From NCBI GenBank assembly GCA_964642155.1, contig CAZXNT010000002.1, forward strand, positions 1,801 to 65,800: a stretch of 64,000 nt of DNA, written 5' to 3'. Source of the DNA: an uncultured Candidatus Saccharibacteria bacterium. Lineage in GTDB: Bacteria; Patescibacteriota; Minisyncoccia; UBA6257; UBA9933. Each line of letters opens with the position of its first letter. Within the stretch, counting starts at the first letter, position 1. A program made the translations under genes and the position numbers. Below the pieces are notes generated by a model, which saw only the letters and a list, made by a program, of their open reading frames with translations, did no database searches and was not told the origin of the DNA. Below are positions 5,829-54,161 of this stretch, piece after piece.

Positions 5829-5869
5829 AGCGGAATTTTCAAAATTCAGCGTTCGTATTTTCGTTAAAA

Positions 5870-6036: not shown

Positions 6037-7116
6037 ATGAAAAAAACATTTATATCAAGTACGTTTGCATTAGTAGCTCTGTTTGCATTTGCGAGTAGTA
6101 CCGCTTTTGCGCAAAGCCCGCAAGCCGCGCTTCCTTCGGCCGGTTTAACTCCCGAAAGCCCTTTCTATTTCCTTGATCGTTTTGGCGAAGCGCTCCAGCA
6201 ATTTTTTACTTTCAATCCAGAAGGCAAAGCCCATCTTCAAATTATTTTTGCCGCGGAACGGATCGCCGAGATAAAAGTCATTTTGGAAACAAAAGGCGTA
6301 GAAGCCAGGGGTCTTGAAGTAGCGCAAAGCCGACTTCAGGCGCACCTTGCTAATGCCGCAACAATAGTTGTAGAACAAAAAGCAGAAGGCAAGGATGTGA
6401 GCCAGCTTGCAAAAGAACTGGACGACGAATTTAATACTCCGAAAACAGTCCTTGAGCAAACATTCAAAGCAGAGAAGCGCGCCCTTGAAGCTCAAGAAAA
6501 AGAATTGAAGGGCAAAATCCTTGAGGCAAGACGAACGGGCGATACCGCTCAAATTGAAAGCTTGGTTCAACAGTTGGGACAGATAAAAGCTCAAAAAGAA
6601 CTCCTTGAATTAAAAGAAGAGGAAGCGGAAGAAGCATTAGAACAAGAAGAAGAACGTATTGAAGAAGAAATGGAAGTAAAAGAAGAAGCAGAGAAAGCGA
6701 TTCGGGAAGCTGAAAAAGAGAAACAGGAAGTATTAGACGAAGCCGCCGAAAAAGATATTGCAGTGCCAGCCGAAGCATTCGGCAAATTTGACAGTCTACT
6801 TGCCCAAGCAAGGTCTGCCCTTGCCACCAGCAACTACCCAGAAGCAAAACTGTTAGCAAAACAAGCCGAGAAAAATCTCAATGCCGTAGATGACGCTATT
6901 GAAAATTTAGAAGAAGCGAAAGAGAGGACGGAGGAACTTAAGAAAGAGCAGGGAGAAAAAGAGCAAGAGGCAAAAGAGGAGCAAGGGGAAAAAGTGAAAG
7001 AAGAAGCTGAAAAAGATGCCGAGCGTTTAGAAAAAGAACGAGAAAAAGCCGAAGAGGATGCTCGTAGAGCAGAGGAACGACTGCGAGAAGCGGGCAATGA
7101 GGAAAAGAATAATTAA
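6037..7116 (+). CDS. Secreted coiled-coil protein (DUF5667-like; signal peptide plus a PESPFYFLDRFGE motif)
   Basis: N-terminal signal peptide MKKTFISSTFALVALFAFASSTAFA. A conserved FYFLDRFGE block is followed by about 250 aa of KE/EA-rich coiled coil. Confidence 0.6.
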   Translation: MKKTFISSTFALVALFAFASSTAFAQSPQAALPSAGLTPESPFYFLDRFGEALQQFFTFNPEGKAHLQIIFAAERIAEIKVILETKGVEARGLEVAQSRLQAHLANAATIVVEQKAEGKDVSQLAKELDDEFNTPKTVLEQTFKAEKRALEAQEKELKGKILEARRTGDTAQIESLVQQLGQIKAQKELLELKEEEAEEALEQEEERIEEEMEVKEEAEKAIREAEKEKQEVLDEAAEKDIAVPAEAFGKFDSLLAQARSALATSNYPEAKLLAKQAEKNLNAVDDAIENLEEAKERTEELKKEQGEKEQEAKEEQGEKVKEEAEKDAERLEKEREKAEEDARRAEERLREAGNEEKNN

Positions 7117-7224
7117 ACTTACTCTTTTTATCTAAAATAATTTGCCGCCAAAGAAAAATCAGAGCACATAAAATTTATGTGCTCGACCGAGCACTAAACT
7201 TGATTTAGTGCTCTGGCTTAAAAT

Positions 7225-7270
7225 CGTTCAATTCGACGCACACCGCCAATTTTCAGAATTCGGATTTTGG
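7225..7270. repeat. Dispersed intergenic repeat, copy c
   Basis: cgttcaattcgacgcacaccgccaattttcagaattcggattttgg. It shares caccgccaattttcagaattcNgatttt with copy d. Confidence 0.7.
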
Positions 7271-7340
7271 GCGAATGTTGCCTTGCCCCGCCTTCGGCGG
7301 GCAAGCGCAATTCTACTCTTGCGACATTTGAAATAAATTT

Positions 7341-8426
7341 ATGAATATCGAGAAAATCAAAATGAGATTGCGCGAAAAAAGTTACGATATTCAAATAGGG
7401 AGCGGCTTTTTAAAGCGCTTTGATTTTCGAAGTTTCAAAGGAAGTAAATATATAATACTCGCGGATTCTAACACTCATAAATTTTTTGGGAAGAATCTCG
7501 TCAAAAATCTCTCCAGTCAAAAATTGCCAGTTGAGTTGCTTGAAATTCCTGCCGGAGAAAGTTCAAAAAATCTAGGAGTTGTTGAAAATCTTATAAGGAA
7601 TCTCGCGAGACTAGGTGCTGATAAAAAAGCGATAATAATCGCACTGGGAGGCGGAGTGGTTGGAGATATTGCCGGATTTGTAGCATCAGTTTATGAACGA
7701 GGGATTCGTTATATTCAAATTCCTACAACACTTTTGGCGCAGGTTGATAGTAGTATTGGAGGTAAAACTGGAGTCAATATTCCAGAGGGTAAAAATTTGA
7801 TCGGCAGAATTTATCAACCGTTAGTTGTTATTGTTGATGTAGAAACTCTCGTTGATCTTCCTGATTCACAAATCAGAAATGGTCTTGCTGAAGTAATAAA
7901 ATATGCGGTAATAAACGATGAGAAGTTTTTTCGATATCTTAAAAAGCATATCCATGACAGGAGCACCAATTTTTATCTAGAGATAATTCGGAAAGCAGCG
8001 ACAATAAAAACTTTCGTTGTGGAAAAAGATGAAAATGAAGAGGAATTTAGAAAAATACTCAACTATGGACATACAATCGGACATGCAATTGAAATTTTGA
8101 GTAATCATAAAATCCCTCACGGCGAAGCAATCGCGTATGGAATGATGTATGAGGGAAGGATTGCTTGTCGGCTTGGCTTGTGGGATAAATCGGCGCTTGA
8201 ACGCCAAAACAATCTAATTAAGAAATTAGGTTTTTCCACAAAATTAAATTTCGTCACGGAAAAACTTATAGAAATAATGAGTCGCGACAAAAAATCAATT
8301 GGTGGTCGGCTTCATTTTGTTTTACCGGAGAAGATTGGTAAAATCCACAAGGAAGGAAAGAGGGTTTCGATACCAGTGGATGCTAAAATCGTATTGGATT
8401 GTTTCGCCCCGCCGGATCCGCTTTAA
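7341..8426 (+). CDS. aroB: 3-dehydroquinate synthase family protein
   Basis: GGGVVGDIAGFVA...IPTTLLAQVDSSIGGKTGVN nucleotide/metal-binding motifs typical of DHQ synthase-like enzymes. No other shikimate-pathway genes are adjacent, so the exact substrate is uncertain. Confidence 0.7.
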   Translation: MNIEKIKMRLREKSYDIQIGSGFLKRFDFRSFKGSKYIILADSNTHKFFGKNLVKNLSSQKLPVELLEIPAGESSKNLGVVENLIRNLARLGADKKAIIIALGGGVVGDIAGFVASVYERGIRYIQIPTTLLAQVDSSIGGKTGVNIPEGKNLIGRIYQPLVVIVDVETLVDLPDSQIRNGLAEVIKYAVINDEKFFRYLKKHIHDRSTNFYLEIIRKAATIKTFVVEKDENEEEFRKILNYGHTIGHAIEILSNHKIPHGEAIAYGMMYEGRIACRLGLWDKSALERQNNLIKKLGFSTKLNFVTEKLIEIMSRDKKSIGGRLHFVLPEKIGKIHKEGKRVSIPVDAKIVLDCFAPPDPL

Positions 8427-8454
8427 TCATTTGGATTTTGCTCGAAATAGTTTA

Positions 8455-8500
8455 GAACTTCGTTCAAAAAACACCGCCAATTTTCAGAATTCTGATTTTA
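8455..8500. repeat. Dispersed intergenic repeat, copy d (the most complete copy)
   Basis: gaacttcgttcaaaaaacaccgccaattttcagaattctgatttta. Confidence 0.7.
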
Positions 8501-8502
8501 AT

Positions 8503-9087
8503 ATGAGAAGTGAAAAATTTGTTAATTTTTCAATAATTGTTTTTATCGTTATAGGCATTGTTTTGTTGTTGGGTAAAGATGGTTGGTTTCCGGAATTTTA
8601 TAACCCGGTTTACATGGGAATTTTTTCTTTTATTTCGGCGTTTCTGTTATATTTTTCCAAAAAAAATTTTTATAAATTGAGCCAAGTTGATTTTGAAAAA
8701 TTGCAATTAATTGTTGTCTTTACGCTGGTTCTTAATGGTTTCGGCAGTCTTGGATTGTATAAATTATATATCGTCGGATTTGAATACGATAAATTGTTGC
8801 ATTTTATAGTTCCTCTTATTTTTACCGTGAATTTTGCCGGTATTTTCAGCAAGCAACGCGGATTGACTTTTAACAAATCTCTAATTGCGGTTTCCATCGC
8901 CATTTTTTTATTTGGTTTATTTTGGGAGATTTTTGAAATTTCATCGGATATATTATTTAGTACGGAAACATTTGGAATTTACGGCAAAGAAACGTTCAGA
9001 GACACTATTCAAGATATTTCAGCAAACGCTTTTGGGATATTCACGGGAATTTTTTATTTGAAATTTAAAAATAAAAAAGCCCGTTGA
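8503..9087 (+). CDS. Polytopic membrane protein (paralog of the 18560-19000 product)
   Basis: Several hydrophobic helices. The shared motif GLFWEIFEISSDILF is similar to GVFLEFAEFLYDIFIS in the paralog. I set the start at ATG 8503 rather than 8299, which would overlap aroB. Confidence 0.6.
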   Translation: MRSEKFVNFSIIVFIVIGIVLLLGKDGWFPEFYNPVYMGIFSFISAFLLYFSKKNFYKLSQVDFEKLQLIVVFTLVLNGFGSLGLYKLYIVGFEYDKLLHFIVPLIFTVNFAGIFSKQRGLTFNKSLIAVSIAIFLFGLFWEIFEISSDILFSTETFGIYGKETFRDTIQDISANAFGIFTGIFYLKFKNKKAR

Positions 9088-9106
9088 ACGGGCTTTCGAT
9101 TTTTTA
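9076..9106 (+). terminator. Rho-independent terminator containing the TGA stop of the upstream gene in its loop
   Basis: aaagcccgtt gaa cgggcttt, then cgattttttaaaaaa. Confidence 0.7.
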
Positions 9107-9259
9107 AAAAATATTTACGCCGTTTTTTACGGCGTTTTGCGGAGGAAAAACCTCCGCGTTCGCAGATAAGGCCTTTCTTTAACAATCGGCCTTACTATGC
9201 AGCAGTAAGAATAATTCTTGTTTATAAATAACCATCGCGGCAGGAAATCAAGCACAATC

Positions 9260-9427
9260 TCACCTCCTTAGATTTTTTATCGGCATTTGTATTATTTTGC
9301 CGATTTTTCCTTTGACTACAACGGCAGTTTTTTCAACTTTGTGAGTTAATGCTTCAACCGAAACATAGGTTATTCCTTCTCCCTCAAAATCAATCTCTAT
9401 AAAACCCTTTTTTACTTTATCATTCAC
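9260..9427 (-). CDS. Small protein, 55 aa, translationally coupled to the upstream ORF; possible toxin-antitoxin partner
   Basis: Not in the supplied ORF track (under 60 aa). A GTG start overlaps the upstream TGA, and its own AAAGGAGGT ribosome-binding site lies 8 nt upstream. The ORF runs to the TGA at 9260-9262. Confidence 0.4.
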   Translation of the reverse strand: MNDKVKKGFIEIDFEGEGITYVSVEALTHKVEKTAVVVKGKIGKIIQMPIKNLRR

Positions 9428-9615
9428 CCCATATTACCTCCTTTTGGTTTCATTTTAATTTTTTTAAATCCAAACTGTTTTTTTTCGCCAGCCAATTCAG
9501 CCGCGGCTTCTTGGCCGATAACTTCTCTCCACCCATTACTCTTATCAATTCCCTTAATATTGCTTTTGTTATTTTTCCATTCTACTACCCAGATGTCCCT
9601 TGGTTTCAAGCTCAT
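9424..9615 (-). CDS. Small protein, 63 aa; its N-terminus weakly resembles BrnT/DUF497 (W..EW..NKSNIKG)
   Basis: GGAGGA ribosome-binding site 4 nt upstream of the ATG. Its stop overlaps the next ORF's start (GTGA). Confidence 0.45.
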   Translation of the reverse strand: MSLKPRDIWVVEWKNNKSNIKGIDKSNGWREVIGQEAAAELAGEKKQFGFKKIKMKPKGGNMG

Positions 9616-14407: not shown

Positions 14408-14472
14408 TGGTTGACAATGATTGATTATTTTTGCTATTCTGTGTAATGACTTTAAAAAGTCATTTTTCATTT

Positions 14473-14886
14473 ATGCCGACAATCAGACAATTAATTAAAA
14501 AAGGAAGAAAAAGCACCAAGAAAAAATCCAAATCGCCGGCGCTGGGTTTTTATTTTAATACGATTTTAAACAAGCCGAAATTTTCCGCTTCGCCGTTCAA
14601 GCGCGGCGTATGTTTGAAAGTTTTTACAACTACCCCTAAGAAACCAAACTCGGCTTTGCGCAAGGTGGCGAGAGTGCGACTTAGTAATGGAATGGAAGTA
14701 AGCGCTTATATTCCTGGTGTTGGACATAATCTTCAAGAACATTCAGTTGTTGTGTTAAGAGGAGGAAGAGTAAAAGATTTGCCGGGAGTAAGATATCATA
14801 TAGTGAGAGGAGTTTTAGATGCCACTGGCGTTGACGGAAGAAAACAAGAAAGAAGCAAGTATGGAGTAAAGAGACCGAAGAAATAA
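14473..14886 (+). CDS. rpsL: 30S ribosomal protein S12
   Basis: [13 protein letters not shown]...[10 protein letters not shown]...VRYHIVRG. The ORF track start at 14431 is an upstream extension. Confidence 0.92.
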
Positions 14887-14906
14887 TTTTAAATTTATAC
14901 TATAAA

Positions 14907-15374
14907 ATGCGTAAAAAACGAGTTTACAAAAAAAATCATAAAGCGGACATTAAACACGGCAGTATTGCGGCCGGCCGTTTTGTCAATTATTTAATGATGG
15001 ATGGAAAAAAATCAGTTGCTGAAAAAGTTTTTTACGATTGTTTTGAAAGAATTCAAAAAGAAACAAAACAGGAGCCGTTGGCGATTTTTGACAAAGCCAT
15101 TTCAAATGTTTCGCCTCTTTTGGAAGTTATTTCAAAAAGAGTGGGAGGCGCCAATTATCAGGTGCCGCGCGAAGTGAGACCGGAAAGAAAATTTTTCTTG
15201 GCTTGCAATTGGATTATTAACGTCGCTAACGCGAAAAAAGGAAAATCAATGGCGCAAAAATTAACGGAAGAAATAATTGCCGCTTCTAAAAATGAAGGTT
15301 CGGCAATCAAAAAGAAACAAGATATGCACCGAATGGCGGAGGCGAATAGAGCCTTCGCGCACTTCGCTAGATAA
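14907..15374 (+). CDS. rpsG: 30S ribosomal protein S7
   Basis: Conserved S7 sequence; it sits directly between rpsL and fusA. Confidence 0.9.
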   Translation: MRKKRVYKKNHKADIKHGSIAAGRFVNYLMMDGKKSVAEKVFYDCFERIQKETKQEPLAIFDKAISNVSPLLEVISKRVGGANYQVPREVRPERKFFLACNWIINVANAKKGKSMAQKLTEEIIAASKNEGSAIKKKQDMHRMAEANRAFAHFAR

Positions 15375-15539
15375 AACATAATTTCTAATTTTCAATTATC
15401 AATTTCCAATAAATTTACAATGAATCAATTTACAATGTTTAAATTAAATGCTTGAAAATTGTAAAATTGTCTCCCTGCGGGAGATGTCCCGAAGGGGCAA
15501 AAATTCAATGAAAATTAAAAATTGTAAATTGAAAATTTT

Positions 15540-17681
15540 ATGAGAGCTTATCCTTTAGAAAAATATCGTAATATCGGCATTATTGCCCATATTGACGCCG
15601 GTAAAACCACCGTTTCAGAACGGGTTCTTTTTTATACCGGCATTTCTCATAAAATCGGTGAAGTTCACGAAGGCCTGGCGGTTATGGATTGGATGGAGCA
15701 GGAAAGGGAACGTGGCATTACTATTACATCGGCCGCCACCACTTGTTTTTGGACATCAACGCGGAAATTGCAGGAAATTTCTGACGAAAAAGAAAAACAA
15801 AAAATTCGCGAAACAGATGAACACCGCATAAACATCATTGATACTCCCGGGCACGTTGATTTTACGGTTGAAGTGGAGAGGTCTCTGCGCGTGCTTGACG
15901 GCGGAGTGGTTGTTTTTGACGGCGTTGCCGGCGTTGAGCCACAGTCAGAAACCGTTTGGCATCAGGCGGATAAATATAAAGTTCCGAGAATTTGTTTTAT
16001 AAACAAGTTAGACAGAATGGGCGCCAGTTTTGAACGCTCTCTAAATTCCATAAGAGAACGTTTAACGCCCGAAGCTTATCCCTTACAATTGCCGATAGGA
16101 TTGGAATCGGCTTTTGAGGGCGTGGTTGATTTAATAAAAATGAAAGCGTTTGGTTTTGAAGGAGAACACGGAGAAAAAATTATTGAAAAAGAAATTCCGG
16201 CAGATATGAAAGAAGCATCTGTAAAAGCAAGAGCCCAACTTGTGGAAAAAATCTCCGAATATGACGACGTTTTGATGGAAAAATATCTTAGCGACGGCAA
16301 TCTTTCGGAAGATGAAATTCGCGCTCTTATTAGAAGGGCGACAATCAGTAACGACTTTGTGCCGGTTCTTTGCGGTTCGGCTTTAAAAAATAAAGGAGTT
16401 CAGTTCATGCTTGACGCTGTTTTGGATTATCTGCCGTCACCCGTTGATTTGGCGGAGATTAAGCCGATTAAAGGCAGCAGTTTAAAGACCGGTGAAGAAA
16501 TTATCCGTCAGCCGGATGACAATGAACCGTTTACGGCATTGGCTTTCAAAATCGCGACCGACCCTTATGTCGGTAGTTTGACTTACTTCAGAATTTACAG
16601 CGGTGTTTTGAAAAAGGGAAGTTATGTTTTAAATTCCGTAAAAGACAATCAGGAACGTATTAGCAGAATTGTGCGGATGCACGCTAATAAGCGTGAAGAA
16701 GTTGATGAATTTTATGCCGGCGATATCGGCGCCATTGTCGGATTAAAAAATACCACTACAGGCGACACTCTTTGCGACCCGGAAAAGCCGATTATTTTGG
16801 AAAAAATAATTTTCCCGGAACCGGTTATTTCCATTAGGATTGAACCGAAAACAAAAGTGGACCAGGAAAAAATCGGCACTGCAATGCATCGGCTTGCGGA
16901 AGAAGACCCGACGTTTAAAATCAGCGGAGATTCGGAAACCGGTGAAACAATTATTTCCGGAATGGGAGAGCTTCACCTTGAAATTTTAGTTGAAAGAATG
17001 AAGCGCGAATTCGGAGTTGAAGCGAATGTCGGCCGCCCGCAAGTCGCTTATAAAGAAACCGTTAAAGGGGAATCGGAAGCGGAAGGGAAATACATCAGGC
17101 AGTCCGGCGGACGCGGACAATACGGTCACGTTAAATTAAAAGTAAAAGCGCTAGAACGCGGTAAGGGCTTTGTTTTTGTCAATGGAATCAAGGGAGGAGT
17201 TATTCCGCAGGAATATATTCCGGCGACCGAAAAAGGAGTCAAAGAATCTCTGGACAAAGGTATTTTAGCGGGTTATCCTGTCATAGACGTTGAAGTGACG
17301 TTGTATGACGGCTCTTTCCATGAAGTTGACTCTTCGGAAGCGGCGTTTAAAATTGCCGGTTCCATGGCTTTTCAGGAAGCGGCGAAAAAAGCCAAGCCCG
17401 TTATTCTTGAACCGATAATGAAAATTCAGATATTAGTGTCGCAGGATTTTCTTGGAGATGTTACGGGAGATTTACAGAGCAAGCGCGGCAGAATAGAAGC
17501 TTTAGGAGAAAGGACAAATATGAAAGTTATAGACGCGAAAGTTCCTCTTTCGGAAATGTTCGGCTATGCCACTAAATTGCGCTCAATGACACAGGGCAGG
17601 GGAAGTTTCACGATGGAATTTGACAGATATGAAGAAGTGCCAAAAAGCGTAGAAACTCAAATTATTGAAGGCAGAAAGTAG
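15540..17681 (+). CDS. fusA: Elongation factor G
   Basis: [10 protein letters not shown]1 motif, [13 protein letters not shown], and full EF-G domain order. Confidence 0.95.
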
Positions 17682-44429: not shown

Positions 44430-44894
44430 ATGGGACAAAAAAAAGTTATAGAAAAAACTGAAAAAGATATTTTAGAAGAAGGCAAGAAATTGGAAGAAAC
44501 GATGGCAAAAAAATCTTCCGTTAAAAAAAGCGGACAAGTGGTTGGGAAAATAGGCGTTGGCGTGATTTACGTAAATTTCAGCTATAATAATACCATGCTT
44601 ACGGCAACCGATAAAAAAGGCAATGTGGTTGCGTGGATTTCCGCCGGCTCTTTGGGTTTTTCGGGGCCTAAAAAAGCCACGCCATTCGCGGCTTCAAAAA
44701 TGGTGGCAGCTGTGTCCGAAAAATTAAAAAAAATCGGTTTTTCCGAAATTGAAGTGGTGATGAAAGGAGTTGGTAGTGCTAGAGATTCCGCCCTGAAATC
44801 TTTAGCAGGTCAAGGATTTAGTATTTTATCAATAAAAGACGTGACGCCAATTCCGCATAATGGTCCGCGTCCGCCGAAAAAAAGAAGAGTATAA
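44430..44894 (+). CDS. rpsK: 30S ribosomal protein S11, with an N-terminal KE-rich extension
   Basis: NNTMLTATDKKGNVVAWISAGSLGF... Confidence 0.9.
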   Translation: MGQKKVIEKTEKDILEEGKKLEETMAKKSSVKKSGQVVGKIGVGVIYVNFSYNNTMLTATDKKGNVVAWISAGSLGFSGPKKATPFAASKMVAAVSEKLKKIGFSEIEVVMKGVGSARDSALKSLAGQGFSILSIKDVTPIPHNGPRPPKKRRV

Positions 44895-44901
44895 TTTTAT
44901 A

Positions 44902-45522
44902 ATGTTAAGAGCCAAAGAAAAAAAAGAACGCGCATTGGGAGTTAAGCTTGGTTTAAAAGCCGAGCGTTGTGATTCGCCGAAATGCGCGATGATAAGACGC
45001 CCTTATAAGCCGGGCGTACACGGTAAGAGCCGTCGTCGCAAATCTGCCTCGGAATACAGCCAACAGCTTCTTGAAAAGCAGAAAATGAAGATAATCTACG
45101 GTTTGAAAGAATCACAATTGAAAAAAATCGTGAAAGAAATAATGAAAAAGGGATTACCGAGTCAGAGAATAATTGTTCTTTTGGAACGCCGTCTTGATAA
45201 TGTAACTTTTAGGACTAGATTGGCGGCATCAAGAATAATTGCCAGACAATTGGTAAGCCACGGTCATATTTTTGTCAATAATAAAAAAGTAACCATTCCT
45301 TCATATTTGGTGAAAGCGGGCGATGTTGTATCAATAAATCCATTGTCCAAGAATCTATTGATTTTTAAAGATTTACAGAATATCATTAAAAAACATGACG
45401 CGCCGGAATGGTTTCAAGTTGACGGCGATAAAGTGGAAGCGAAAATAAAATCATTGCCAGCAAGAATTTCAGAAGAATTATTATTTGATCTAAACTTGGT
45501 CGTGGATTATTACAGCAGATAA
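44902..45522 (+). CDS. rpsD: 30S ribosomal protein S4
   Basis: CDSPKCAMIRRPYKPGVHG zinc-finger-like N-terminus and an S4 domain. ATG at 44902, after the rpsK stop. Confidence 0.9.
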   Translation: MLRAKEKKERALGVKLGLKAERCDSPKCAMIRRPYKPGVHGKSRRRKSASEYSQQLLEKQKMKIIYGLKESQLKKIVKEIMKKGLPSQRIIVLLERRLDNVTFRTRLAASRIIARQLVSHGHIFVNNKKVTIPSYLVKAGDVVSINPLSKNLLIFKDLQNIIKKHDAPEWFQVDGDKVEAKIKSLPARISEELLFDLNLVVDYYSR

Positions 45523-45526
45523 AAAT

Positions 45527-46312
45527 ATGCAATATCAATACCTTAGTGAAACAGTAAAAATTAAAAAAGTTTCGGAAACCGACATTGAGGGGGTTTTTGA
45601 AGTTGAAGGGCTTTATGCCGGTTATGGCCTTACTTTGGGCAATGCCTTGCGAAGAGCGCTTTTGTCTTCTTTACCCGGCGCCGCCATTACCCAGATAAAA
45701 ATTAAAGGCGTAAAACATGAATTTTCAACCATAGCGGGCGTAAAAGAGGATATTGTGGAAATTATTTTAAATCTTAAAAAAATTCGCTTTAAGCTTTATT
45801 CCGATGAACCGCAGGTTCTTTCTTTAAAAGCGAAAGGAGAGAAAAAAATTTTAGCCAAAGATATTGAAGTCAATTCTGAAATTGAAATCGTTAATCTTTC
45901 CGCTCATATTCTTTCATTAACCGGAAAAAATGCCGAAATTGAAATGGAATTAACCGTTGAAAAAGGATTGGGATATATGGCGGCAGAGAATAGAAAAGCC
46001 GATAAATTGCCAGTGGGCGTGATTGCCATTGATTCATTTTTCAGTCCGGTTATTGGCGTGAATTTTGTTGTTGAAAACATGCGCGTTGGAGAAAGAACGG
46101 ATTATAACAGATTAAGGATTTTTATTAAGACGGACGGAAGCATAACGCCGTCAAAAGCGCTTCATAAATCCGCGAATATTTTGAAAGACCATATTGAAAA
46201 AGTGGCGTTGATTGAAGTGAAAGAGATTGAACTAGAGAAAACTTCATCTGCCGGGAAAAAAGGGAAAAAAGCGGTTAAGGAAAAAGAAGAAAAAAAGAAA
46301 AAAAAGAAATAA
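45527..46312 (+). CDS. rpoA: DNA-directed RNA polymerase alpha subunit: N-terminal domain only, no alpha-CTD
   Basis: The alpha-NTD is conserved (..GYGLTLGNALRRALLSS..). The protein ends after a Lys-rich tail at 261 aa, and rplQ starts 1 nt later, so no CTD is encoded here. Confidence 0.85.
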   Translation: MQYQYLSETVKIKKVSETDIEGVFEVEGLYAGYGLTLGNALRRALLSSLPGAAITQIKIKGVKHEFSTIAGVKEDIVEIILNLKKIRFKLYSDEPQVLSLKAKGEKKILAKDIEVNSEIEIVNLSAHILSLTGKNAEIEMELTVEKGLGYMAAENRKADKLPVGVIAIDSFFSPVIGVNFVVENMRVGERTDYNRLRIFIKTDGSITPSKALHKSANILKDHIEKVALIEVKEIELEKTSSAGKKGKKAVKEKEEKKKKKK

Positions 46313-46662
46313 TGAAGCATCTTAAAAAAGGAAGAAAATTTCATAGAGCAAAGGGCCAGCGCCGGGCTCTTTTAAAAAGTTTAATCGCTAATTTAATCAT
46401 TAAAGAAAAAATTGAAACCACGGAAGCGAAAGCCAAAGAGATTAAATCGGCAACGGAAAAATTAGTCACGCTTGCTAAAAAACAAAACGTGGCATCTTTA
46501 AGGATTATTTTATCAAGATTAACCAATAAAGCGGGGCAAAAATTATATTATCAAATTGCGCCGCGATATATTGAAAGAAAGGGGGGATATTTGAGAATAA
46601 TTAAATTGGCGAAAGTCAGGAAGAATGACGCCGCCAAGATGGCGATAATTGAGTTTGTATAA
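46312..46662 (+). CDS. rplQ: 50S ribosomal protein L17
   Basis: MKHLKKGRKFHRAKGQRRALLKSL... Confidence 0.9.
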   Translation: MKHLKKGRKFHRAKGQRRALLKSLIANLIIKEKIETTEAKAKEIKSATEKLVTLAKKQNVASLRIILSRLTNKAGQKLYYQIAPRYIERKGGYLRIIKLAKVRKNDAAKMAIIEFV

Positions 46663-46669
46663 ATGGGGA

Positions 46670-46698
46670 TTGACACGAAGCAGTTGATTGGCTATCAT
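46670..46698 (+). promoter_or_regulatory. Sigma70-type promoter for tuf (TTGACA, 17 nt spacer, TATCAT), followed by a roughly 120-nt leader made of heptamer repeats
   Basis: ttgaca cgaagcagttgattggc tatcat. The leader contains (GAATTAT)n and its inverse (ATAATTC)n. Confidence 0.6.
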
Positions 46699-46817
46699 AT
46701 TAATTGTCGTTAAAATAAAAAAGTCGTAAATAAATTGAATAAAGAATTAAGAATTATGAATTATGAATGGCAAAAATCAATAATTCATTATTCATTATTC
46801 GTAATTCATTAAAAACA

Positions 46818-48017
46818 ATGGCTGAAAAAGCAAAATTTGAAAGAAATAAGCCGCATTTAAATGTCGGCACGATTGGACACGTTGACCACGGCAAAACTAC
46901 TTTGACTGCCGCGATGACGCATGTCCTTAAATTAAAAGGTCTTATTGATAAAGAGGAGAGGGTTGATGAGATAGATAATGCTCCGGAAGAAAAAGCTCGC
47001 GGTATTACTATTGCCATTCATCATTCCGAATACCAATCCGAAAAACGGCATTACGCACATGTTGATTGTCCGGGACACGCGGATTATATCAAAAACATGA
47101 TTACGGGAGCCGCTCAAATGGACGGCGCGATTTTAGTTGTTTCCGCGGCTGATGGCCCGATGCCTCAGACTCGTGAACACATCTTGTTAGCGCGCCAAGT
47201 TGGCGTTCCGTCGGTAGTTGTTTTCTTAAATAAAGTTGATATGGTTGATGACCCGGAACTTATTGATTTAGTTGAAGCCGAAGTAAGGGAGCTTTTAAAA
47301 AAATATCAATTCCCTGGCGATACAACACCGATTATTCGCGGTTCGGCCGTGAAAGCTTTAGTTGCGGCCTCAGCAGACGATGAAGCGGCTAAGCCGATAT
47401 TGGATTTGCTTAAAGCTCTTGATGATTTTATTCCAGAACCGGTTCGTGAAACCGATAAGCCGTTTTTGATGCCCGTTGAAGACGTATTTTCAATTGAAGG
47501 CCGTGGCACGGTTGTTACCGGAAGAATTGAAAGGGGAATCGTTAAAGTCAACGATGAAATTGAAATTATTGGAATAAAACCAACTGCAAAAACCGTAGTC
47601 ACCGGTATTGAAATGTTTAAAAAACTTCTTGATGAAGGACGAGCCGGAGACAATGTCGGCGTTTTACTCCGCGGACTTAAAAAAGAAGACGTGGAGCGCG
47701 GACAAGTTTTGGCAAAAACCGGAAGTGTTACTCCGCATACTGAATTTGAAGCCGAAGTTTATATTTTGAGCAAGGAAGAAGGTGGACGCCACACCCCTTT
47801 CTTTAAAGGATATAAACCGCAATTTTATATCAGAACGACCGATGTCACCGGAGAAGCATTTTTGCCGGAAGGAATGGAAATGGTTATGCCCGGCGACACA
47901 GTAAAACTTAATGTCAAATTGATTGCGCCGGTGGCTCTTGAAGAAAAACAGAGGTTTGCCATCCGTGAAGGAGGAAAAACTGTGGGAGCGGGAGCGGTAA
48001 CTAAAATAATTAAATAG
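46818..48017 (+). CDS. tuf: Elongation factor Tu
   Basis: [25 protein letters not shown]. The ORF track start at 46767 is an upstream extension. Confidence 0.95.
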
Positions 48018-48051
48018 CAGGCACGAAGTAGTAAGTAGAAAGTTTTTTACA

Positions 48052-48381
48052 ATGGCTAAAAAAGAAGAAGATTTACAATCAAAAATCAGATTAAGGATAA
48101 GGTCTTACGACCATCGGTTGATTGACAATTCCGTCAAGCAGATTATTGAGACGGCTTTGCGCAACGGCGCCGAAGTTATTGGACCGATTCCTTTACCAAC
48201 GGAAATAAAGCGTTACACCGTTAACCGTTCAACTTTTGTTCACAAAACGAGCCGTGAACAATTTGAACTTCGCGTTCATAAGCGGCTGGTGGATATTCTT
48301 AATCCTAACCAAAAAATCATTGAATCTCTCGGCGGTCTAAATCTTCCCGCGGGAGTGGACATAGAAATCAAGATGAAGTAA
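48052..48381 (+). CDS. rpsJ: 30S ribosomal protein S10
   Basis: [23 protein letters not shown]... Confidence 0.92.
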
Positions 48382-48393
48382 AGATGAAATAAT

Positions 48394-48424
48394 AAAAAAC
48401 CCCCCGCAAAGCGGGGGGTTTTTG
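48394..48424 (+). terminator. Strong rho-independent terminator after rpsJ
   Basis: aaaaaaccccccgc aaa gcggggggttttt. Confidence 0.85.
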
Positions 48425-48467
48425 GTTATAAGCGGATTTTTGATAAGCAATATGGTAAAATAAACTT

Positions 48468-51311
48468 ATGACCAAACAAGAAGGACAGCAGCAAATAACG
48501 AGGTTAATTGAGAAATACGAAAAAGCCAGCCAGGCTGGTAAAATAAAAAATTATACAGAAGAAGACACTAAAAAAGATTTTATTCTACCGCTTTTTCATT
48601 TATTGGGTTGGGATGTTCATAATAGAAATGAAGTTACTTCTGAAGAAAATATTTCCGGTAAACGGGTTGATTATGGTTTTTATTTGAATGGTCGGCCGAG
48701 ATTTTATCTTGAGGCGAAAAAATTCTCTGTCGATATAAATAATCCTGATTCCGCCAATCAAGCGGTAAGTTATTCGTGGAATAAGGGTATTACCTGGGCG
48801 GTATTAACTAATTTTGAGGATTTAAAAATTTTTAATGCGGAAAATATTAAAAGTTCTCTTGCGGATAAGCGGTTTAAAACATTCCATTATACCGAATATA
48901 TCGCACGCTTTGACGAGCTTATCTTACTTTCTAAATCCGCTTTCGAAGGGGATTTATTGAATAAAGAGGCCGCGAAATCAGGCAAAATTTTTGAGCGCAT
49001 TCCGGTAAGCGACACACTTTATAAAGATTTGGATGAATGCCGTGATATACTTACAAAATCTTTAATCCAGTGTAATCCGCAACTTAAAAAAGACCCCGAT
49101 CTTTTAGATGAAGGCGTGCAAAAACTTCTTGATAGGTTAATTTTTATGAGGGTTGCGGAAGATAGGGGTGTGGAGCCGAATATTTTAAAAGTCATTGTAC
49201 GGGAGGCAAGCGTAAATCGTAAAGGCCATATGTCGCTTTATCAAGCGATGGCACAAAAATTTCGAGAGCTTGATAATATCTATAATTCAAATTTATTTTC
49301 CAAACATCCATTTGAAGAATGGGATGAATATGGCGGAGCTACAGAAAAAATTATTGAAAAACTTTACGGCAAGAAGGGATATTATGAATATGATTTTAAA
49401 ATAATGCCTGCGGATGTTTTGGGTACGGTATATGAACATTATCTCGCTCATCGGCTTTCAAAATCTAGAAAGGGAATAACAATTGATAAAGATGCCGGCA
49501 AAAGAAAAGAACAGGGAATTTATTATACTCCTTCATTTATAGTTGATTATATTGTTCGCCACGCGCTCCAACCAGTTTTAGATAAATGTAAGACAATTGA
49601 TCAATTATTAAAAATAAAAGTTTTAGATCCTGCTTGTGGCTCAGGGTCATTTCTTATCAAAGCGCTTGATGTATTTACGGAAAAATACAAAGAACTTGGC
49701 TATAAAGGCGATGAAATCACTAAATTTATAATTCTCGCCCAAAATCTTTATGGCGTTGATTTTGACAAAAAAGCCGTTGAGATTGCGCGTCTTAATCTTT
49801 GTATTAATTCTCTTGATCGTAAAACAAAACTGCCATATCTTACGGATCATATCAAATGTGGCAATTCTTTAATTTCAGGAACCGACGAAGAACTTAAAAA
49901 AGCATTTGGAAAAGATTATCGCGATAAAAAGCCGTTTAATTGGCAAGAAGAATTTTCAGATGTTTTCAAACAGGGCGGTTTTGATGTGATTATCGGCAAT
50001 CCGCCATATCTTAAAGAGCTTGATAATAAAGAATTGTTTCAAGAAATTAGGAAAAGTGATTTCGGTAAATATTATCAAGGGAAAATGGATTTTTGGTATT
50101 TTTTTCTACACAGATCAATCGAAATTTTAAAAGACGGCGGAATAATGGCTTTTATTACAAACAGTTATTTTTTGAAAAGCGCCGGCGCGACAAAATTAAT
50201 AGATCGCCTACAAAATGAAATGGTTTTATTAAGAGCCGTTGATTTTCAAGATATTAGTGTTTTTGAAGATGTTAGCGGAAGACATCTGATACATATTTGG
50301 GAAAAAATAAAAGATAAAAATAACACGATTACAACATATATTAAGATAGATAAGAATTCGTTCAATGGGACTATTGATGACACCAAATACATAGAATTGC
50401 CATATTCGGAAGTTATAAAAAATTCGTCAATTAATTTTGAAACAAATATTCAGACAAGCAATGAAAATAGTTTATTATTAGGGAATTTATATGATGTTTC
50501 GCAGGGTGTAGTTGAGGCAACAGATAAAATAAGTAAAAAAATGTCGTTGAACATAAAGGATAAAGAACTAAAATCTGGCGATGGTGTTTTTGTATTATCA
50601 GGGGCAGAATTAAAAGAATTAAATTTAAATGAAAAAGAAAAATCAGTGATCAAAAAATATCTCAATACAAATGATATTAAAAAATATCGTATTAATTTTA
50701 ATAATGAATATCTTATTTATTCTGATAAAGAAACAAAAAGCAAAATTGCTGATGAGGGATACCCACACATTAAATCCCATTTGGATAAAATGGGGCAGTT
50801 TATAACGTCGTCAAATGCGCCATATGGTTTGCATCGTCCACGAGATAATAAATATTTTAAAGAACCAAAACTTATTTGTAAGGGTATGTTTTTATCTCCG
50901 GAATTCTGTTTTGACGATGAAAAATATTATGTTGGGTTTTCATTTTCAGTGATTATTCAAAAAAATAAAGATTATGATTTGAAATATTTATTGGGATTAC
51001 TTAATTCCAGTTTTGGGAGAAATTGGTTTAATATTAATGGCAAAAAAAGAGGTGTTGGTGTAGATATTGGGGTTGCAGTGTTTAGAAATTTTCCGGTGTA
51101 TAAAGCGAACAAAGAGCAACAAAATCAGTTAATTAATTTGGTAAATAATATACTTTCTCTTAATAAAGAAATTCATAAATTAGCTGAAAATTCTAACAAA
51201 TATAATTCTATAAAATCCGAAATAGATAAAACCGACAAAGAAATAGACGAAAAAGTTTATAAATTATACGGTTTGACGGGGGAGGAGATTAAAATTGTTG
51301 AAAGTTTATGA
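48468..51311 (+). CDS. Type IIG restriction-modification enzyme (N-terminal PD-(D/E)xK nuclease plus gamma-class N6-adenine methyltransferase plus a target-recognition region; Eco57I/MmeI-like)
   Basis: N-terminal ..EEDTKKDFILPLFHLLGW..GKRVDY..YLEAKK (D...EAK nuclease). Methyltransferase motif X TPSFIVDYIV, motif I LDPACGSGSFL, motif IV GNPPY. About 350 aa of C-terminal recognition region. Confidence 0.8.
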   Translation: MTKQEGQQQITRLIEKYEKASQAGKIKNYTEEDTKKDFILPLFHLLGWDVHNRNEVTSEENISGKRVDYGFYLNGRPRFYLEAKKFSVDINNPDSANQAVSYSWNKGITWAVLTNFEDLKIFNAENIKSSLADKRFKTFHYTEYIARFDELILLSKSAFEGDLLNKEAAKSGKIFERIPVSDTLYKDLDECRDILTKSLIQCNPQLKKDPDLLDEGVQKLLDRLIFMRVAEDRGVEPNILKVIVREASVNRKGHMSLYQAMAQKFRELDNIYNSNLFSKHPFEEWDEYGGATEKIIEKLYGKKGYYEYDFKIMPADVLGTVYEHYLAHRLSKSRKGITIDKDAGKRKEQGIYYTPSFIVDYIVRHALQPVLDKCKTIDQLLKIKVLDPACGSGSFLIKALDVFTEKYKELGYKGDEITKFIILAQNLYGVDFDKKAVEIARLNLCINSLDRKTKLPYLTDHIKCGNSLISGTDEELKKAFGKDYRDKKPFNWQEEFSDVFKQGGFDVIIGNPPYLKELDNKELFQEIRKSDFGKYYQGKMDFWYFFLHRSIEILKDGGIMAFITNSYFLKSAGATKLIDRLQNEMVLLRAVDFQDISVFEDVSGRHLIHIWEKIKDKNNTITTYIKIDKNSFNGTIDDTKYIELPYSEVIKNSSINFETNIQTSNENSLLLGNLYDVSQGVVEATDKISKKMSLNIKDKELKSGDGVFVLSGAELKELNLNEKEKSVIKKYLNTNDIKKYRINFNNEYLIYSDKETKSKIADEGYPHIKSHLDKMGQFITSSNAPYGLHRPRDNKYFKEPKLICKGMFLSPEFCFDDEKYYVGFSFSVIIQKNKDYDLKYLLGLLNSSFGRNWFNINGKKRGVGVDIGVAVFRNFPVYKANKEQQNQLINLVNNILSLNKEIHKLAENSNKYNSIKSEIDKTDKEIDEKVYKLYGLTGEEIKIVESL

Positions 51312-52294
51312 AATTAAATAAAATTATCAATCTCAAAAATTGGCATCAGCGGAATATAGATAATGTTGGTTTTGGTACTCGCGATAAAATTGTTCTCAAA
51401 CAAAGCAAAAAAGGGAGGGTTTATTTTCTTGCCAAGACATATGACAAAGATATCGGAGAGTTGAGGTCAGAAGTTTGTGCGTCAAATATAGGCAGACTTT
51501 TTGGTTTTCCCGTGCAAAAGACATGGCTTTGTAATATTCCACAATACAAATCATTGGAATTTAAACATTCAGTCGGTGTTCTTATCCAATTAGATGTTCG
51601 GAGACAGAGAGAAACACGCCGAGGTCGATTTAGCGAGGACTTATTACACGGCGCAGACATTATATCTATAATTGATAAGAAGTTTGCCAGTTTAAAGAAT
51701 TTAAAAGAAAAGAGAAGAGTATATACTCTTAAAGTAGTTGTAGATAGTATTAGAAATTATGTTAATAATCATCAAAATTCCAATAAATTTTGGGATCAAT
51801 TTTTTGAATTACTGGTTTTCGATGCTTTGATTGGTGGCACTGATAGACATTATTATAATTGGGGCGTGCTTGAAAAAGCAGATACGGGCGAATTTATTCG
51901 TCTTGCGCCGGCATTTGATAACGGAATCAGTTTAATGTGGAAAATGGAAGAATATAGACCGCAGTTTATGAGAGATTTATTCACAAGAGATTTTCCACGA
52001 AAAGCAGAGTCAATGTTTAAAAAAGTCGGTGGAGGTAAATATTCTTTATTTGAGGTATTAAATGAACTATATAAAATTGGTGATTATAAAAAATCAAATA
52101 TAGTTCAAAAAGTTTTAGATCAAATTGGGAAAATAAAAGAATCAAGAATTAGATCGGTTATTTTAAATAATGTGCCAAAAAGAGCTCAGTTTAAAACAAA
52201 AAATGATGAGTTGGATTTAATTTGTGAGTATGTTAAAATAAGATTAAATTTATTAAAGCAAACTTTGAATGAATTAAATAGGGTAAATATATGA
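51308..52294 (+). CDS. HipA-family Ser/Thr kinase core (HipT-like; lacks the HipA N-subdomain)
   Basis: LVFDALIGGTDRHYYNWGVL (catalytic GTD.H..N) and LAPAFDNGISL (Mg-binding D) match HipA_C. ATGA overlap with the restriction-modification gene. Confidence 0.7.
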   Translation: MKLNKIINLKNWHQRNIDNVGFGTRDKIVLKQSKKGRVYFLAKTYDKDIGELRSEVCASNIGRLFGFPVQKTWLCNIPQYKSLEFKHSVGVLIQLDVRRQRETRRGRFSEDLLHGADIISIIDKKFASLKNLKEKRRVYTLKVVVDSIRNYVNNHQNSNKFWDQFFELLVFDALIGGTDRHYYNWGVLEKADTGEFIRLAPAFDNGISLMWKMEEYRPQFMRDLFTRDFPRKAESMFKKVGGGKYSLFEVLNELYKIGDYKKSNIVQKVLDQIGKIKESRIRSVILNNVPKRAQFKTKNDELDLICEYVKIRLNLLKQTLNELNRVNI

Positions 52295-52602
52295 ACATAC
52301 TACATTACAAGGTTATTTATAGGAACGGAAATAAAATCCCCGTGGAAATTGCAGACTTCTATCGTAAAAACGATGGTAATTTTTTGTTTCAATATAAAGA
52401 TCAACCAGATTATGAATTCCCAGGATTTGATAAATTAGAAAAAAAGTATGAAAGTGATCATTTATGGGAACAGATTTCTTTTCGAGTATCAAATAATATA
52501 CGGAATCAGTTTCCAAATATTCCGCCGGAAGAGTTATTAAAAGAAACGGGGGGGAAATTAGTAACTGATCATTTTGAATTTCAGTTTATAGAGAACATTT
52601 AG
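52291..52602 (+). CDS. Small protein resembling the HipA N-terminal subdomain (HipS-like)
   Basis: 103 aa; an L.V..NG..V.E......F.Y pattern like the HipA N-subdomain. ATGA overlap with the kinase gene. Confidence 0.45.
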   Translation: MNILHYKVIYRNGNKIPVEIADFYRKNDGNFLFQYKDQPDYEFPGFDKLEKKYESDHLWEQISFRVSNNIRNQFPNIPPEELLKETGGKLVTDHFEFQFIENI

Positions 52603-52898
52603 AGCGTTTTAAGAATTTTTATAAAATAAAAATAATTAAACTATTGATTTTTACATTTTTATTTGTTATAATTATTAAAAATAAAATAGGTTTATTATCG
52701 GGGATTACATCAAACGTAATTTTTTACACGATTTAATCTCATTATCTCCGATTACATTATTGATAAAATTCAATAGATAGAATCAATAAAAAAGGTCGGA
52801 AGAGGCCTTTTTTATTTTTTTTATAGTCGCGTATCGCGCCAACGGCAATTCGAAAATATTAATAAAACGGTTGGTAAATATAATAAAAAATTATTAAT

Positions 52899-53249
52899 AT
52901 GAACTTAAATTGGATAAAATGTGAAAATGATCAATGGTGTAATTTTCTTTTCCTTGATTTAGACCATTTTCATTTTGATGATTTGGAGGGTGTATATATG
53001 ATTTGGCATGCCGGAGTTAATCCATGGGTTGTACGAGTTGGACAAGGGAACATCCGTGATCGTTTAAAAGCTCACAGGCAAGATGCAAAAATTCTTAAAT
53101 ACAAAGATTTAGAATTATATGCAATTTGGGCAGAAGTCAATAATATATATCGAGATGGGGTTGAAGTATATCTTGGAGAAAAATGGACACCAAAAGTTGG
53201 TGAAAAATTTCCAGATACTACTCCAATTATGGTAAATTCACCATGGTAA
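52899..53249 (+). CDS. Small GIY-YIG-like protein
   Basis: GVYMIWH...VVRVGQGNIRDRLKAHRQ resembles GIY...YIG...R...H. Confidence 0.45.
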   Translation: MNLNWIKCENDQWCNFLFLDLDHFHFDDLEGVYMIWHAGVNPWVVRVGQGNIRDRLKAHRQDAKILKYKDLELYAIWAEVNNIYRDGVEVYLGEKWTPKVGEKFPDTTPIMVNSPW

Positions 53250-53364
53250 TAAGCTTAAAAATCCTAAAAACCACTTGAGCCTTAGTTATTTAGCATATGA
53301 TCGTTATGAATGAAATTTCAGTTTGATAATAACAAAAGAGCGGCGCTAATTTGGGGGCTTATGC

Positions 53365-53393
53365 AAAAATCCGCTTTTGGCGGATTTTTGTTT
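53365..53393 (+). terminator. Rho-independent terminator closing the inserted island
   Basis: aaaaatccgc tttt ggcggattttt gtttg. Confidence 0.75.
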
Positions 53394-53555
53394 GTATATT
53401 TTATCGTGTTGACATTTATTTTCCTATTTGCTATCTTTATTACAATGTTAAATTTTTATTTAACATAAAATAATACTTACAGATTTAGCCACCTTGCGTT
53501 TATTTCGCGGGGAATTGCGAAAAAGCAGCCGGCTAATCTGGCTGTTTTTATTGTT

Positions 53556-54161
53556 ATGGCATTTATATTGGGTAAAAAATTAAAAATGTCCCAGATTTGG
53601 AAAGATGATAAAATTGTTCCGGTAACGCTTATTCAAGCGGGTCCGATAACGATAACGCAAATAAAGACAAAAGAAAAAGACGGCTATGAAGCGATTCAGG
53701 CCGGATTTGACGCGACAAAGAAAAAAATAAACAAACCGGAAAAGGGCCACTTAAAAGATTTGGGTAATTTTAGGCATCTCAAAGAGTTTAAAGTTTTAGA
53801 ACTGGAAAGCTTAAAAGTTGGAGATGTTTTGACAGTTGAACAATTCAGCGAGGGCGATAAAGTGAAGGTGAGCGGCTTAAACAAGGGCCGCGGATTTCAG
53901 GGAGGGGTAAAGCGGCATGGATTTGCCGGTGGTCCGAAAACTCACGGCCAAAAGAATCGTCATAGGGCTCCGGGTTCAATCGGCGCCACGGCCCCGCAAA
54001 GAGTTGTGCCGGGATTGAGAATGGCCGGCCATATGGGAACCGAAAGAGTGACAGTCAAAAATTTAAAGGTTGTTTTAATTGATAAGGAAAATAATATTTT
54101 AGCGCTAAAAGGCGCGGTCCCGGGAATGAAAGGAATATTGTTGGAAGTTGTAAAGTTATAA
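53556..54161 (+). CDS. rplC: 50S ribosomal protein L3
   Basis: ILGKKLKMSQIW...KGRGFQGGVKRHGF. Confidence 0.92.
   Translation: MAFILGKKLKMSQIWKDDKIVPVTLIQAGPITITQIKTKEKDGYEAIQAGFDATKKKINKPEKGHLKDLGNFRHLKEFKVLELESLKVGDVLTVEQFSEGDKVKVSGLNKGRGFQGGVKRHGFAGGPKTHGQKNRHRAPGSIGATAPQRVVPGLRMAGHMGTERVTVKNLKVVLIDKENNILALKGAVPGMKGILLEVVKL

Follow-up and report, generated by a model that had tools for sequence, protein, structure and literature searches.

What brings a restriction-modification gene and a HipA-like kinase gene between two ribosomal protein genes, and do the genes found there make up one system? The question is raised by a 64,000 nucleotide (nt) stretch of contig CAZXNT010000002.1 (GenBank assembly GCA_964642155.1, an uncultured Candidatus Saccharibacteria bacterium), hereafter termed the window, in which rpsJ and rplC are separated by an island spanning positions 48382-53555. 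The island encodes a Type IIG restriction-modification enzyme, a HipA-family kinase and a small protein that resembles HipS. We favour, with moderate confidence in the reading as a whole, that this island is an accessory cassette inserted in the S10 ribosomal-protein operon of a Patescibacteria (candidate phyla radiation, CPR) bacterium, and that its Type IIG gene and a co-transcribed kinase/HipS-like toxin-antitoxin pair of the hipJS type form a defence and addiction cassette. The open reading frames (ORFs) lie at the coordinates and on the forward strand given in the original prediction, which had been made from the sequence without database searches, and the flanking genes are rpsJ and rplC by Pfam. 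Lengths of their products are in amino acids (aa):

48052-48381, + strand: rpsJ (ribosomal protein S10), left flank (Pfam Ribosomal_S10, 2.6e-33)
48468-51311, + strand: Type IIG restriction-modification enzyme, 947 aa (Pfam, PADLOC)
51308-52294, + strand: HipA-superfamily core kinase, 328 aa, putative toxin (HipJ/HipI-like, CtkA-like; Pfam, PADLOC)
52291-52602, + strand: HipS-like protein, 103 aa, putative antitoxin (predicted fold, profile search)
52899-53249, + strand: GIY-YIG-fold protein, 116 aa, passenger gene in a variable slot (predicted fold)
53556-54161, + strand: rplC (ribosomal protein L3), right flank (Pfam Ribosomal_L3, 1.4e-14)

The 328 aa protein matches Pfam HipA_C with 44.9 bits (cut-off 30.5; E = 1.4e-11), which places it inside the HipA family, and its residues 5-320 align with positions 2-276 of the 280 in the PADLOC model PDC-M03A (PDLC04340; 2.1e-35). 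All four core motifs of HipA-superfamily kinases are present: a Gly-rich loop near the N-terminus (VGFGTRDK, residues 21-27, including G21, G23, T24 and R25), the activation region (GELRSE), the catalytic D-x-H-x-x-N (within GGTDRHYYNWG at residue 176) and the Mg-binding D-x-G (within APAFDNG, around residues 200-206). The catalytic motifs and the missing N-subdomain had both been called correctly from the sequence. In an alignment of 34 homologues that are 34-100% identical to the window kinase, residues G23, R25, K43, E55, R180, H181, N184, D204, N205 and G206 are invariant, and the catalytic D179 is nearly so, being Glu in the most distant members; the core motifs, with the loop as VGYGTRDK, GGTDRHxxNWG and FDNG, likewise vary little or not at all. 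When the family profile was searched against all Protein Data Bank (PDB) sequences, it found CtkA (3akj, 2.7e-12) and, marginally, HipA of E. coli (0.026), and it found no HipT chain at E values up to 1. Because the profile reaches CtkA and marginally HipA, and never HipT, these comparisons define the protein as a predicted HipA-superfamily core kinase that lacks N-subdomain 1 and lies outside the HipT lineage. The family comprises at least 117 clusters at 90% identity, and nine kinase loci are found among 185,579 species-representative genomes.

Searches by sequence alone, in Pfam and NCBIfam and with phmmer and hmmsearch among the PDB sequences, returned no meaningful match for the 103 aa protein; hits to light-harvesting proteins were rejected because they reflect only a short motif of the FPGFD type. 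The protein was identified through its predicted fold and an exhaustive profile search. The model has the fold of HipA N-subdomain 1 as a separate chain, without a HIRAN domain, and the match to the PADLOC model PDC-M03B (2.5e-7) is confined to profile positions 26-121, the C-terminal half being absent. A profile of the small-protein family, searched against 1.84 billion representative proteins, recovers further proteins of about 100 aa and also proteins of 216-256 aa, the latter matched at their N-termini. Ten of the longer matches, nine of 224-256 aa and one of 425 aa, were scanned; each has HIRAN at its C-terminus, and one of the ten also reaches Pfam Couple_hipA (2e-7). By these profile matches the small-protein family is homologous to the HipS-like N-terminal domain of HipS-HIRAN (HipN) proteins, and the predicted fold and this homology together bear out the proposal that the 103 aa protein resembles the N-subdomain missing from the kinase.

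The length of 103 aa is conserved across 90 clusters, and W59 is invariant in 41 homologues. HipS blocks the kinase HipT by binding beside its Gly-rich loop, where Trp65 of E. coli HipS is inserted (PMC10627512); W59 is a candidate counterpart of this Trp65. We rejected the idea that the 103 aa and 116 aa ORFs are the two pieces of a broken 250 aa PDC-M03B protein, since the 116 aa protein has a GIY-YIG fold and the length of the 103 aa protein is conserved. Two larger proteins recovered with the family have other architectures. P0257 (425 aa) joins a HipS-like N-terminus to HIRAN and to an HD phosphohydrolase domain, and P0235 (2026 aa) has eight separate matches to the first approximately 35 residues of the HipS-like profile and so contains a repeated beta-hairpin-like unit.

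The first gene of the island encodes a protein that matches the PADLOC model REase_MTase_IIG (PDLC03604) from end to end (residues 3-943, 1.1e-110). Its architecture consists of an N-terminal PD-(D/E)xK nuclease (Pfam HSDR_N 3.1e-10 and HSDR_N_2 1.2e-5, residues 31-126; motif D68...E82-x-K84), a gamma-class N6-adenine methyltransferase (Eco57I 3.3e-36, N6_Mtase 2.1e-20; DPACGSG at 387, NPPY at 511), a TaqI_C-type recognition domain (1.2e-13, residues 730-853) and a conserved C-terminal tail that ends ...LYGLTGEEIKIVESL. Among solved structures, the methyltransferase-recognition part resembles CamA (7.5e-25) and BseCI. We therefore accept the earlier description of the 947 aa protein as a single-chain Type IIG enzyme, with an activity that is predicted from these domains and motifs.

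To compare the island with related loci, 59 kinase loci were grouped into 41 lineages at 97% kinase identity. A HipS-like gene follows the kinase gene directly in each of the 32 lineages whose contigs extend at least 330 nt downstream, with a spacing in the sampled loci of -23 to +5 nt by gene calls. What lies upstream of the pair differs from lineage to lineage, and includes genes for LepA, PfkB, a ComM-like ATPase, DnaX, DUF1361 and unknown proteins of 260-724 aa; other loci have nothing on the same strand, an Xre-type helix-turn-helix (HTH) gene (L018, L031) or a Type IIG gene. Housekeeping genes are the neighbours in most lineages. The distribution of the pair is patchy and site-variable, with at least 15 different contexts in the 41 lineages. 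Because the pairing is invariant while the upstream neighbours vary, the two genes constitute a conserved, mobile unit that is able to exist alone. In none of the loci examined does the pair come with an integrase, a transposase or terminal repeats. Since the same cassette occupies other genomic sites elsewhere, the view that the block in the window is accessory is upheld. On none of the fetched loci, which were chosen by their kinase, do rpsJ or rplC appear, except on the window's own contig.

Several of these loci have neighbours of their own. In L018 (177-386) and L031 (288-500) an Xre-type HTH ORF lies directly upstream of the kinase gene, with gaps of 3 nt and 121 nt, and the gene call for P0110 puts an HTH and the kinase in one frame; tripartite members, in the order HTH, kinase, HipS, may thus exist. 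On a Peregrinibacteria contig (L011, 8284-12437) the pair is convergent with Type III-like genes for a ResIII helicase (840 aa) and an N6_N4_Mtase protein (528 aa).

Among the approximately 32 lineages with readable upstream sequence, four have an intact Type IIG gene before the pair. The stop codon of a Type IIG gene lies in a 4 nt overlap with the kinase start in the window, in L027, in the L005 group and in L034. The L027 kinase is 91% identical to that of the window, and only the tail of its enzyme is on the contig. In the L005 group (Parcubacteria GW2011_GWA2_42_14) the enzyme has 879 aa and its gene is located after recJ, and the L034 enzyme, encoded on a CPR contig of 867 kb, has 1079 aa. 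Between the enzymes of the window and of L005, identity is 54% over residues 1-626 and 64% over the last 66 residues, and the recognition domains that lie between these parts are unrelated. The L034 enzyme, which belongs to a separate PADLOC Type IIG family (PDLC03596), is only about 25% identical. Common to all of these enzymes is a C-terminal tail of the form ...LYGLT-EEI-IVE. The same 4 nt junction is made with three different enzymes, in a subclade whose kinases are at least 79% identical.

The junction must be read with care. Both overlaps predicted for the window are real (enzyme/kinase at 51308-51311, kinase/HipS-like at 52291-52294). As a general argument for translational coupling, however, the ATGA sequence fails, because kinases of this family start with Met-Lys (ATG AAA) and ATGA consequently occurs at nearly every kinase start. 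For the same reason, ATGA points to coupling only if an ORF upstream has its stop codon in the frame concerned.

Remnants of the enzyme are found where no intact gene is left. In L036, a 40-codon ORF (1451-1573) that overlaps the kinase start joins, in frame, a Type IIG N-terminus (MDKSEKLKRIWDLVEKYKSALNNGQIKKYTEE) to the tail (EEIKIVESL), and its sequence identifies it as the footprint of an internal enzyme deletion in which the pair was retained. L003 carries a 17-codon stub of the enzyme tail, behind a stop codon, upstream of its kinase gene, and the stubs in L031 and L035 are shorter and less certain. Upstream of kinases that are 74% or less identical to that of the window, no traces of an enzyme were seen. 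Enzyme-kinase coupling is recurrent and is not obligate, and the dependence of the pair on the enzyme that the original prediction had proposed does not stand, given the few lineages with an intact enzyme and the one that deleted it and kept the pair. In our reading of these sequences, the enzyme-coupled operon would be the ancestral or a recurrent state within the subclade of kinases at least 79% identical, where the enzyme has been exchanged or lost and the pair persists.

A possible route to this coupling is visible in L005, where a 64 nt direct repeat of the enzyme tail (7904-7967 and 9390-9453, 92% identical) flanks the pair. The downstream copy lies 125 nt past the HipS-like gene and is broken by a 45 nt inverted-repeat (hairpin-like) insert. 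This repeat suggests insertion or exchange via recombination at the tail. To judge from the sequences, the probable origin of the coupling is recombination in the 3' tail conserved among Type IIG genes; this would set the kinase ATG over the enzyme stop codon.

Other genes accompany the pair in two of these lineages. In L003 (6485-7940) it is preceded by a MazG-like gene and a gene for a 368 aa protein with a weak match to PDDEXK_9 (E 0.022, not significant). L034 has on one strand (1381-9292) genes for an HKD/PLD and SNF2 helicase protein (1125 aa; PADLOC 'HKD+Snf2', DrmD-like), the Type IIG enzyme, the kinase and the HipS-like protein, flanked by an NYN-domain gene upstream and a Cas4-like PD-(D/E)xK gene downstream.

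How might such a cassette work? The Type IIG enzyme would methylate the host copies of its recognition site and cut unmethylated incoming DNA. The hipJS-type pair would be transcribed together with the enzyme, and the HipS-like protein, by analogy with HipBST, would dock on the kinase and hold it inactive. If the small protein were lost or outnumbered, as might follow from shut-off of host expression by a phage or from loss of the cassette, the freed kinase would arrest growth by phosphorylating an essential target, most likely one in the translation apparatus. The outcome would be abortive infection, post-segregational killing, or both, and the neighbouring restriction gene would be stabilised as well. 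Recombination at the conserved 3' tail of a Type IIG gene could recreate the enzyme/kinase junction.

The enzyme, kinase and small protein might instead form one integrated system, in which the pair senses or controls the enzyme; for example, anti-restriction by a phage could free the kinase, as with PrrC, or the kinase could phosphorylate the enzyme. The junction that recurs with three different enzymes speaks for such integration, as do the helicase gene added to the L034 operon and the likely co-transcription of enzyme and kinase, which is expected because no terminator lies between their genes. We nevertheless judge it improbable. Most lineages have the whole, conserved pair and lack an enzyme, at least once the enzyme was deleted and the pair left intact, and the coupled kinases and small proteins have no extra domain that sets them apart from uncoupled ones. 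Moreover, the low identity of about 25% among enzymes that are coupled to nearly identical kinases makes a specific enzyme-kinase interface unlikely. The pair might also be mobile and purely selfish, a toxin-antitoxin cassette without any defence role that homes in on Type IIG tails and whose co-location with the enzyme is functionally uninformative. Such a cassette would account for the tail duplication around the pair in L005, the tail stub beside it in L003, the scatter of insertion sites among core genes and the low G+C content. It seems improbable to us all the same, since a flanking repeat is found in one lineage only and no pair locus has an integrase, a transposase or terminal repeats. 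In addition, defence has been validated for a related HipA-family pair, and the sister family is among PADLOC's defence candidates. Many copies of the pair lie between housekeeping genes on the same strand, as would be expected if the kinase were a non-toxic signalling enzyme with a regulatory subunit and a housekeeping role in CPR cells, with the restriction neighbour there by accident. CtkA, the nearest solved relative, is to our knowledge not the toxin of a toxin-antitoxin pair. This explanation is very unlikely, though, because the spread of the pair over lineages, contexts and species-representative genomes is patchy, and because the split-HipA architecture has proved to be a toxin-antitoxin pair wherever it was tested (PMC10627512, PMC8262856).

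A defence and addiction cassette, in which the link of the Type IIG gene to the hipJS-type pair is recurrent and not obligate, is the reading we retain. It is supported by the defence genes that neighbour the pair in L034 and L011. Several observations weigh against it. Many copies of the pair have housekeeping genes around them and lack any further defence gene in the vicinity, as would suit a plain addiction element, or even a regulatory kinase of the cell. Recombination at the tail rests on L005 as the one locus with a flanking repeat, and the window has no second copy of the enzyme tail downstream of its HipS-like gene. In addition, the antitoxins of hipJS and hipIN are termed putative by those who described them (PMC8262856), and PDC-M03 has the status of a candidate in PADLOC. 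A bolder version of this reading appears doubtful to us: the pair, as a mobile cassette, would recombine specifically with the Type IIG tail (LYGLT-EEI-IVE) and be coupled in translation to any enzyme behind which it inserts, and the resulting operon would give CPR bacteria two layers of defence, restriction and then kinase-driven arrest upon disturbed expression. If it were true, the tail-targeting cassette and its two-layer operon would represent a composite system and a targeting mechanism not yet described.

The G+C content of the island genes is 0.31-0.34, and 0.28 where the enzyme's recognition part is encoded, compared with 0.41-0.43 for tuf, rpsJ and rplC. Homologues of every island protein derive from Patescibacteria/CPR metagenomes. 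In the flanks of the island we found no target-site duplications and no att-like or direct repeats, and there is no integrase for the island as a whole. Its predicted signals are as follows:

48395-48423, no strand assigned: terminator-like left boundary, a G+C-rich hairpin of 13 pairs (8 G-C) with T runs on both strands
48451-48464, + strand: possible extended -10 element TGgTAAAAT, a weak candidate a few bases 5' of the enzyme ATG
52785-52816, + strand: terminator-like hairpin closing the three-gene operon, 13 pairs followed by a T run
53363-53391, + strand: terminator-like hairpin 3' of the GIY-YIG gene, conserved in L027
53409-53437, + strand: promoter-like site, TTGACA-17 nt-TATCTT with TG, 10 of 12 matches, among the best of the region
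53521-53549, + strand: right boundary, a 12-pair hairpin and T run whose end lies 6 nt 5' of the rplC start codon

The predicted hairpins at 48395-48423 and 53521-53549 agree with the earlier view that the insert is bounded by terminators, and terminator-like hairpin sites are more frequent in the region (14) than in shuffled sequences (3.3 +/- 2.0). The extended -10 motif occurs eight times across the window against 3.6 +/- 2.1 expected, an enrichment that is not significant; an element nearly identical to the one at 48451-48464 precedes another gene in L027. The promoter-like site at 53409-53437 could restart transcription into rplC. Together with the hairpin that follows, the stretch 53409-53555 could be a leader or attenuator for ribosomal genes that are now severed from rpsJ; Rfam gives no match to it. 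Rfam matches to leaders and small RNAs were rejected, being sub-threshold only and all centred on the rpsJ terminator hairpin.

The GIY-YIG gene that follows the pair had been taken as the gene that closes the island. Its 116 aa product has no profile match, and specifically no Pfam GIY-YIG match at E values up to 1, and its fold is recognised from a predicted model (predicted local distance difference test 94.9) that matches GIY-YIG nucleases (Eco29kI, 8.7; UvrC N-domain, 8.3; EndoII, 7.8; I-TevI, 7.2). In its family G31-V32-Y33, R55, H59 and E89 are invariant and N113 nearly so, and at the position of the second Tyr the protein reads R46-V47-G48, with Arg in place of Tyr. The model thus supports the GIY-YIG alpha/beta fold that had been proposed. 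Membership in the cassette is a different matter, since homologues sit singly in unrelated contexts and none lies beside the kinase in other loci. In L027 the corresponding slot (1754-1993) holds a DUF2188 gene (Pfam 1.9e-22; PADLOC candidate PDC-S16, 1.4e-23), and the non-coding flanks of the slot are conserved between the window and L027, with 83% identity to L027 1997-2152 on the downstream side. The slot takes variable small genes. With homologues in unrelated places and DUF2188 in the L027 slot, the GIY-YIG gene is a passenger that is independent of the cassette.

Elsewhere in the window, an ORF at 75-827 aligns with a PADLOC model for a Type II restriction enzyme over the C-terminal two thirds of that model (1e-92); the real start of the ORF may precede the listed TTG or lie past the window edge. 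It is followed at 831-3527 by a gene for an 898 aa protein that matches Ppl (1.5e-35) and AAA_21/AbiEii-type ATPases, and by these matches positions 75-3527 are a predicted second defence locus. The order of translation genes is unusual, with rpoA and rplQ directly upstream of tuf and rpsJ (44430-48381) and fusA at 15540-17681 (within 14431-17681), about 30 kb from tuf. Six genes, rpsJ and rplC included, were inspected for a Shine-Dalgarno-like sequence, and none is preceded by one.

The value of the locus depends on which reading holds. If the pair is a plain addiction module, the finding is an ordinary one. The hipJS and hipIN modules are predicted toxin-antitoxin or defence systems, and the present family offers a large set of compact examples (328 and 103 aa) from genome-reduced CPR bacteria that is suited to structural and toxicity work. 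The junction-exact coupling, the deletion remnants and the one tail repeat provide a concrete case of how a toxin-antitoxin/restriction operon is assembled. Finally, the predicted insertion in the S10 operon, with its own terminators and a promoter-like site, would mean that defence cargo can be accommodated even within the most conserved operon that a minimal genome has.

How does the pair relate to known systems? The closest counterparts are hipJS, a kinase gene with a downstream gene for a HipS of approximately 100 aa, and hipIN, a kinase gene with one for a HipS-HIRAN protein, neither of which includes HipB (Gerdes, Baerentsen and Brodersen 2021, mBio, PMC8262856). Like hipJS, which belongs to the Hip Tree's clade XI (PMC8262856), the window pair consists of a short core kinase without N-subdomain 1 and a downstream HipS-like protein of about 100 aa, with neither HIRAN nor HipB. 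The absence of HipB had been correctly noted in the original prediction; as a peculiarity it loses its force, because it is the norm for hipJS and hipIN. At 328 aa the window kinase is slightly longer than the short kinases of clade XI (HipG, HipI, HipJ and HipM, 279-321 aa; PMC8262856). Whereas the hipJS study reports two modules and names no CPR taxon in its main text, the present family spans at least 41 lineages, all from metagenomes of the CPR type. Unlike hipJS as described, some of its pairs are coupled to a Type IIG gene and some to an Xre-type HTH gene. The PDC-M03 model of PADLOC corresponds to hipIN; the window kinase matches its component PDC-M03A over the full length, whereas the small protein matches only the HipS-like N-terminal half of PDC-M03B (a profile of 232-250 positions) and is without the HIRAN half. 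PADLOC predicts a defence role for pairs of HipA and HIRAN proteins (PMC11706625). Because HIRAN, a DNA-end-binding domain, is absent, the DNA-sensing role proposed for HipN cannot apply here. By sequence, the window pair is of hipJS-like organisation, a HIRAN-less sister of hipIN.

The original prediction had compared the pair with HipT and HipS of HipBST, whose HipT targets TrpS (PMC10627512, PMC9325769). Compared with the HipBST systems known from E. coli O127 and from Legionella pneumophila (PMC10627512, PMC9325769), where the genes run hipB-hipS-hipT, the order in the window is reversed, with the kinase first, and HipB is missing. The window kinase has no detectable similarity to HipT, and the small protein is only 12-16% identical to HipS. 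No HTH ORF occurs within the island. With the gene order enzyme, kinase, HipS-like, with no HTH and with no HipT match, the hipBST assignment was rejected in favour of the hipJS/hipIN type. The nearest solved kinase by sequence is CtkA of Helicobacter pylori (JHP0940, 3akj), which has 325 aa and likewise lacks the N-subdomain; the aligned part takes in the catalytic region and the one that binds Mg, and amounts to only about half of the protein. We know of no HipS-like partner of CtkA.

PrrC is an abortive-infection gene that resides in the EcoprrI restriction locus and is held latent by EcoprrI. In the window, as with PrrC/EcoprrI and other embedded modules, a second module is co-located and co-expressed with a restriction-modification system, but here the restriction partner is a single chain of Type IIG, and the genes of the HipA-type kinase pair follow its gene instead of being embedded in it. 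Unlike the case of PrrC, there is no sign that the Type IIG enzyme keeps the window kinase latent. The co-location of second-line or selfish genes with restriction-modification loci is an established theme ('guilt-by-embedding', bioRxiv 10.1101/2024.01.29.577857). Another HipA-family pair, HipAD (DS-6), has been validated as an anti-phage system, and its defence requires a catalytic residue (PMC13092281). HipAD resembles the window pair in having a partner other than HipB; that partner, however, is a DUF3037/DUF1829 protein rather than a HipS-like one, and HipAD has no link to a restriction enzyme. A limited literature search found no description of Type IIG genes coupled to a hip pair, and in one report a HipA-like gene and a Type IIG gene occur in different islands (PMC2853133). 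The claim of an undescribed architecture hence survives for the Type IIG coupling and lapses for the kinase/HipS pair, which had already been described. The parts of the cassette are known, and its kinase/HipS-like pair represents a large CPR expansion of an organisation described from two examples.

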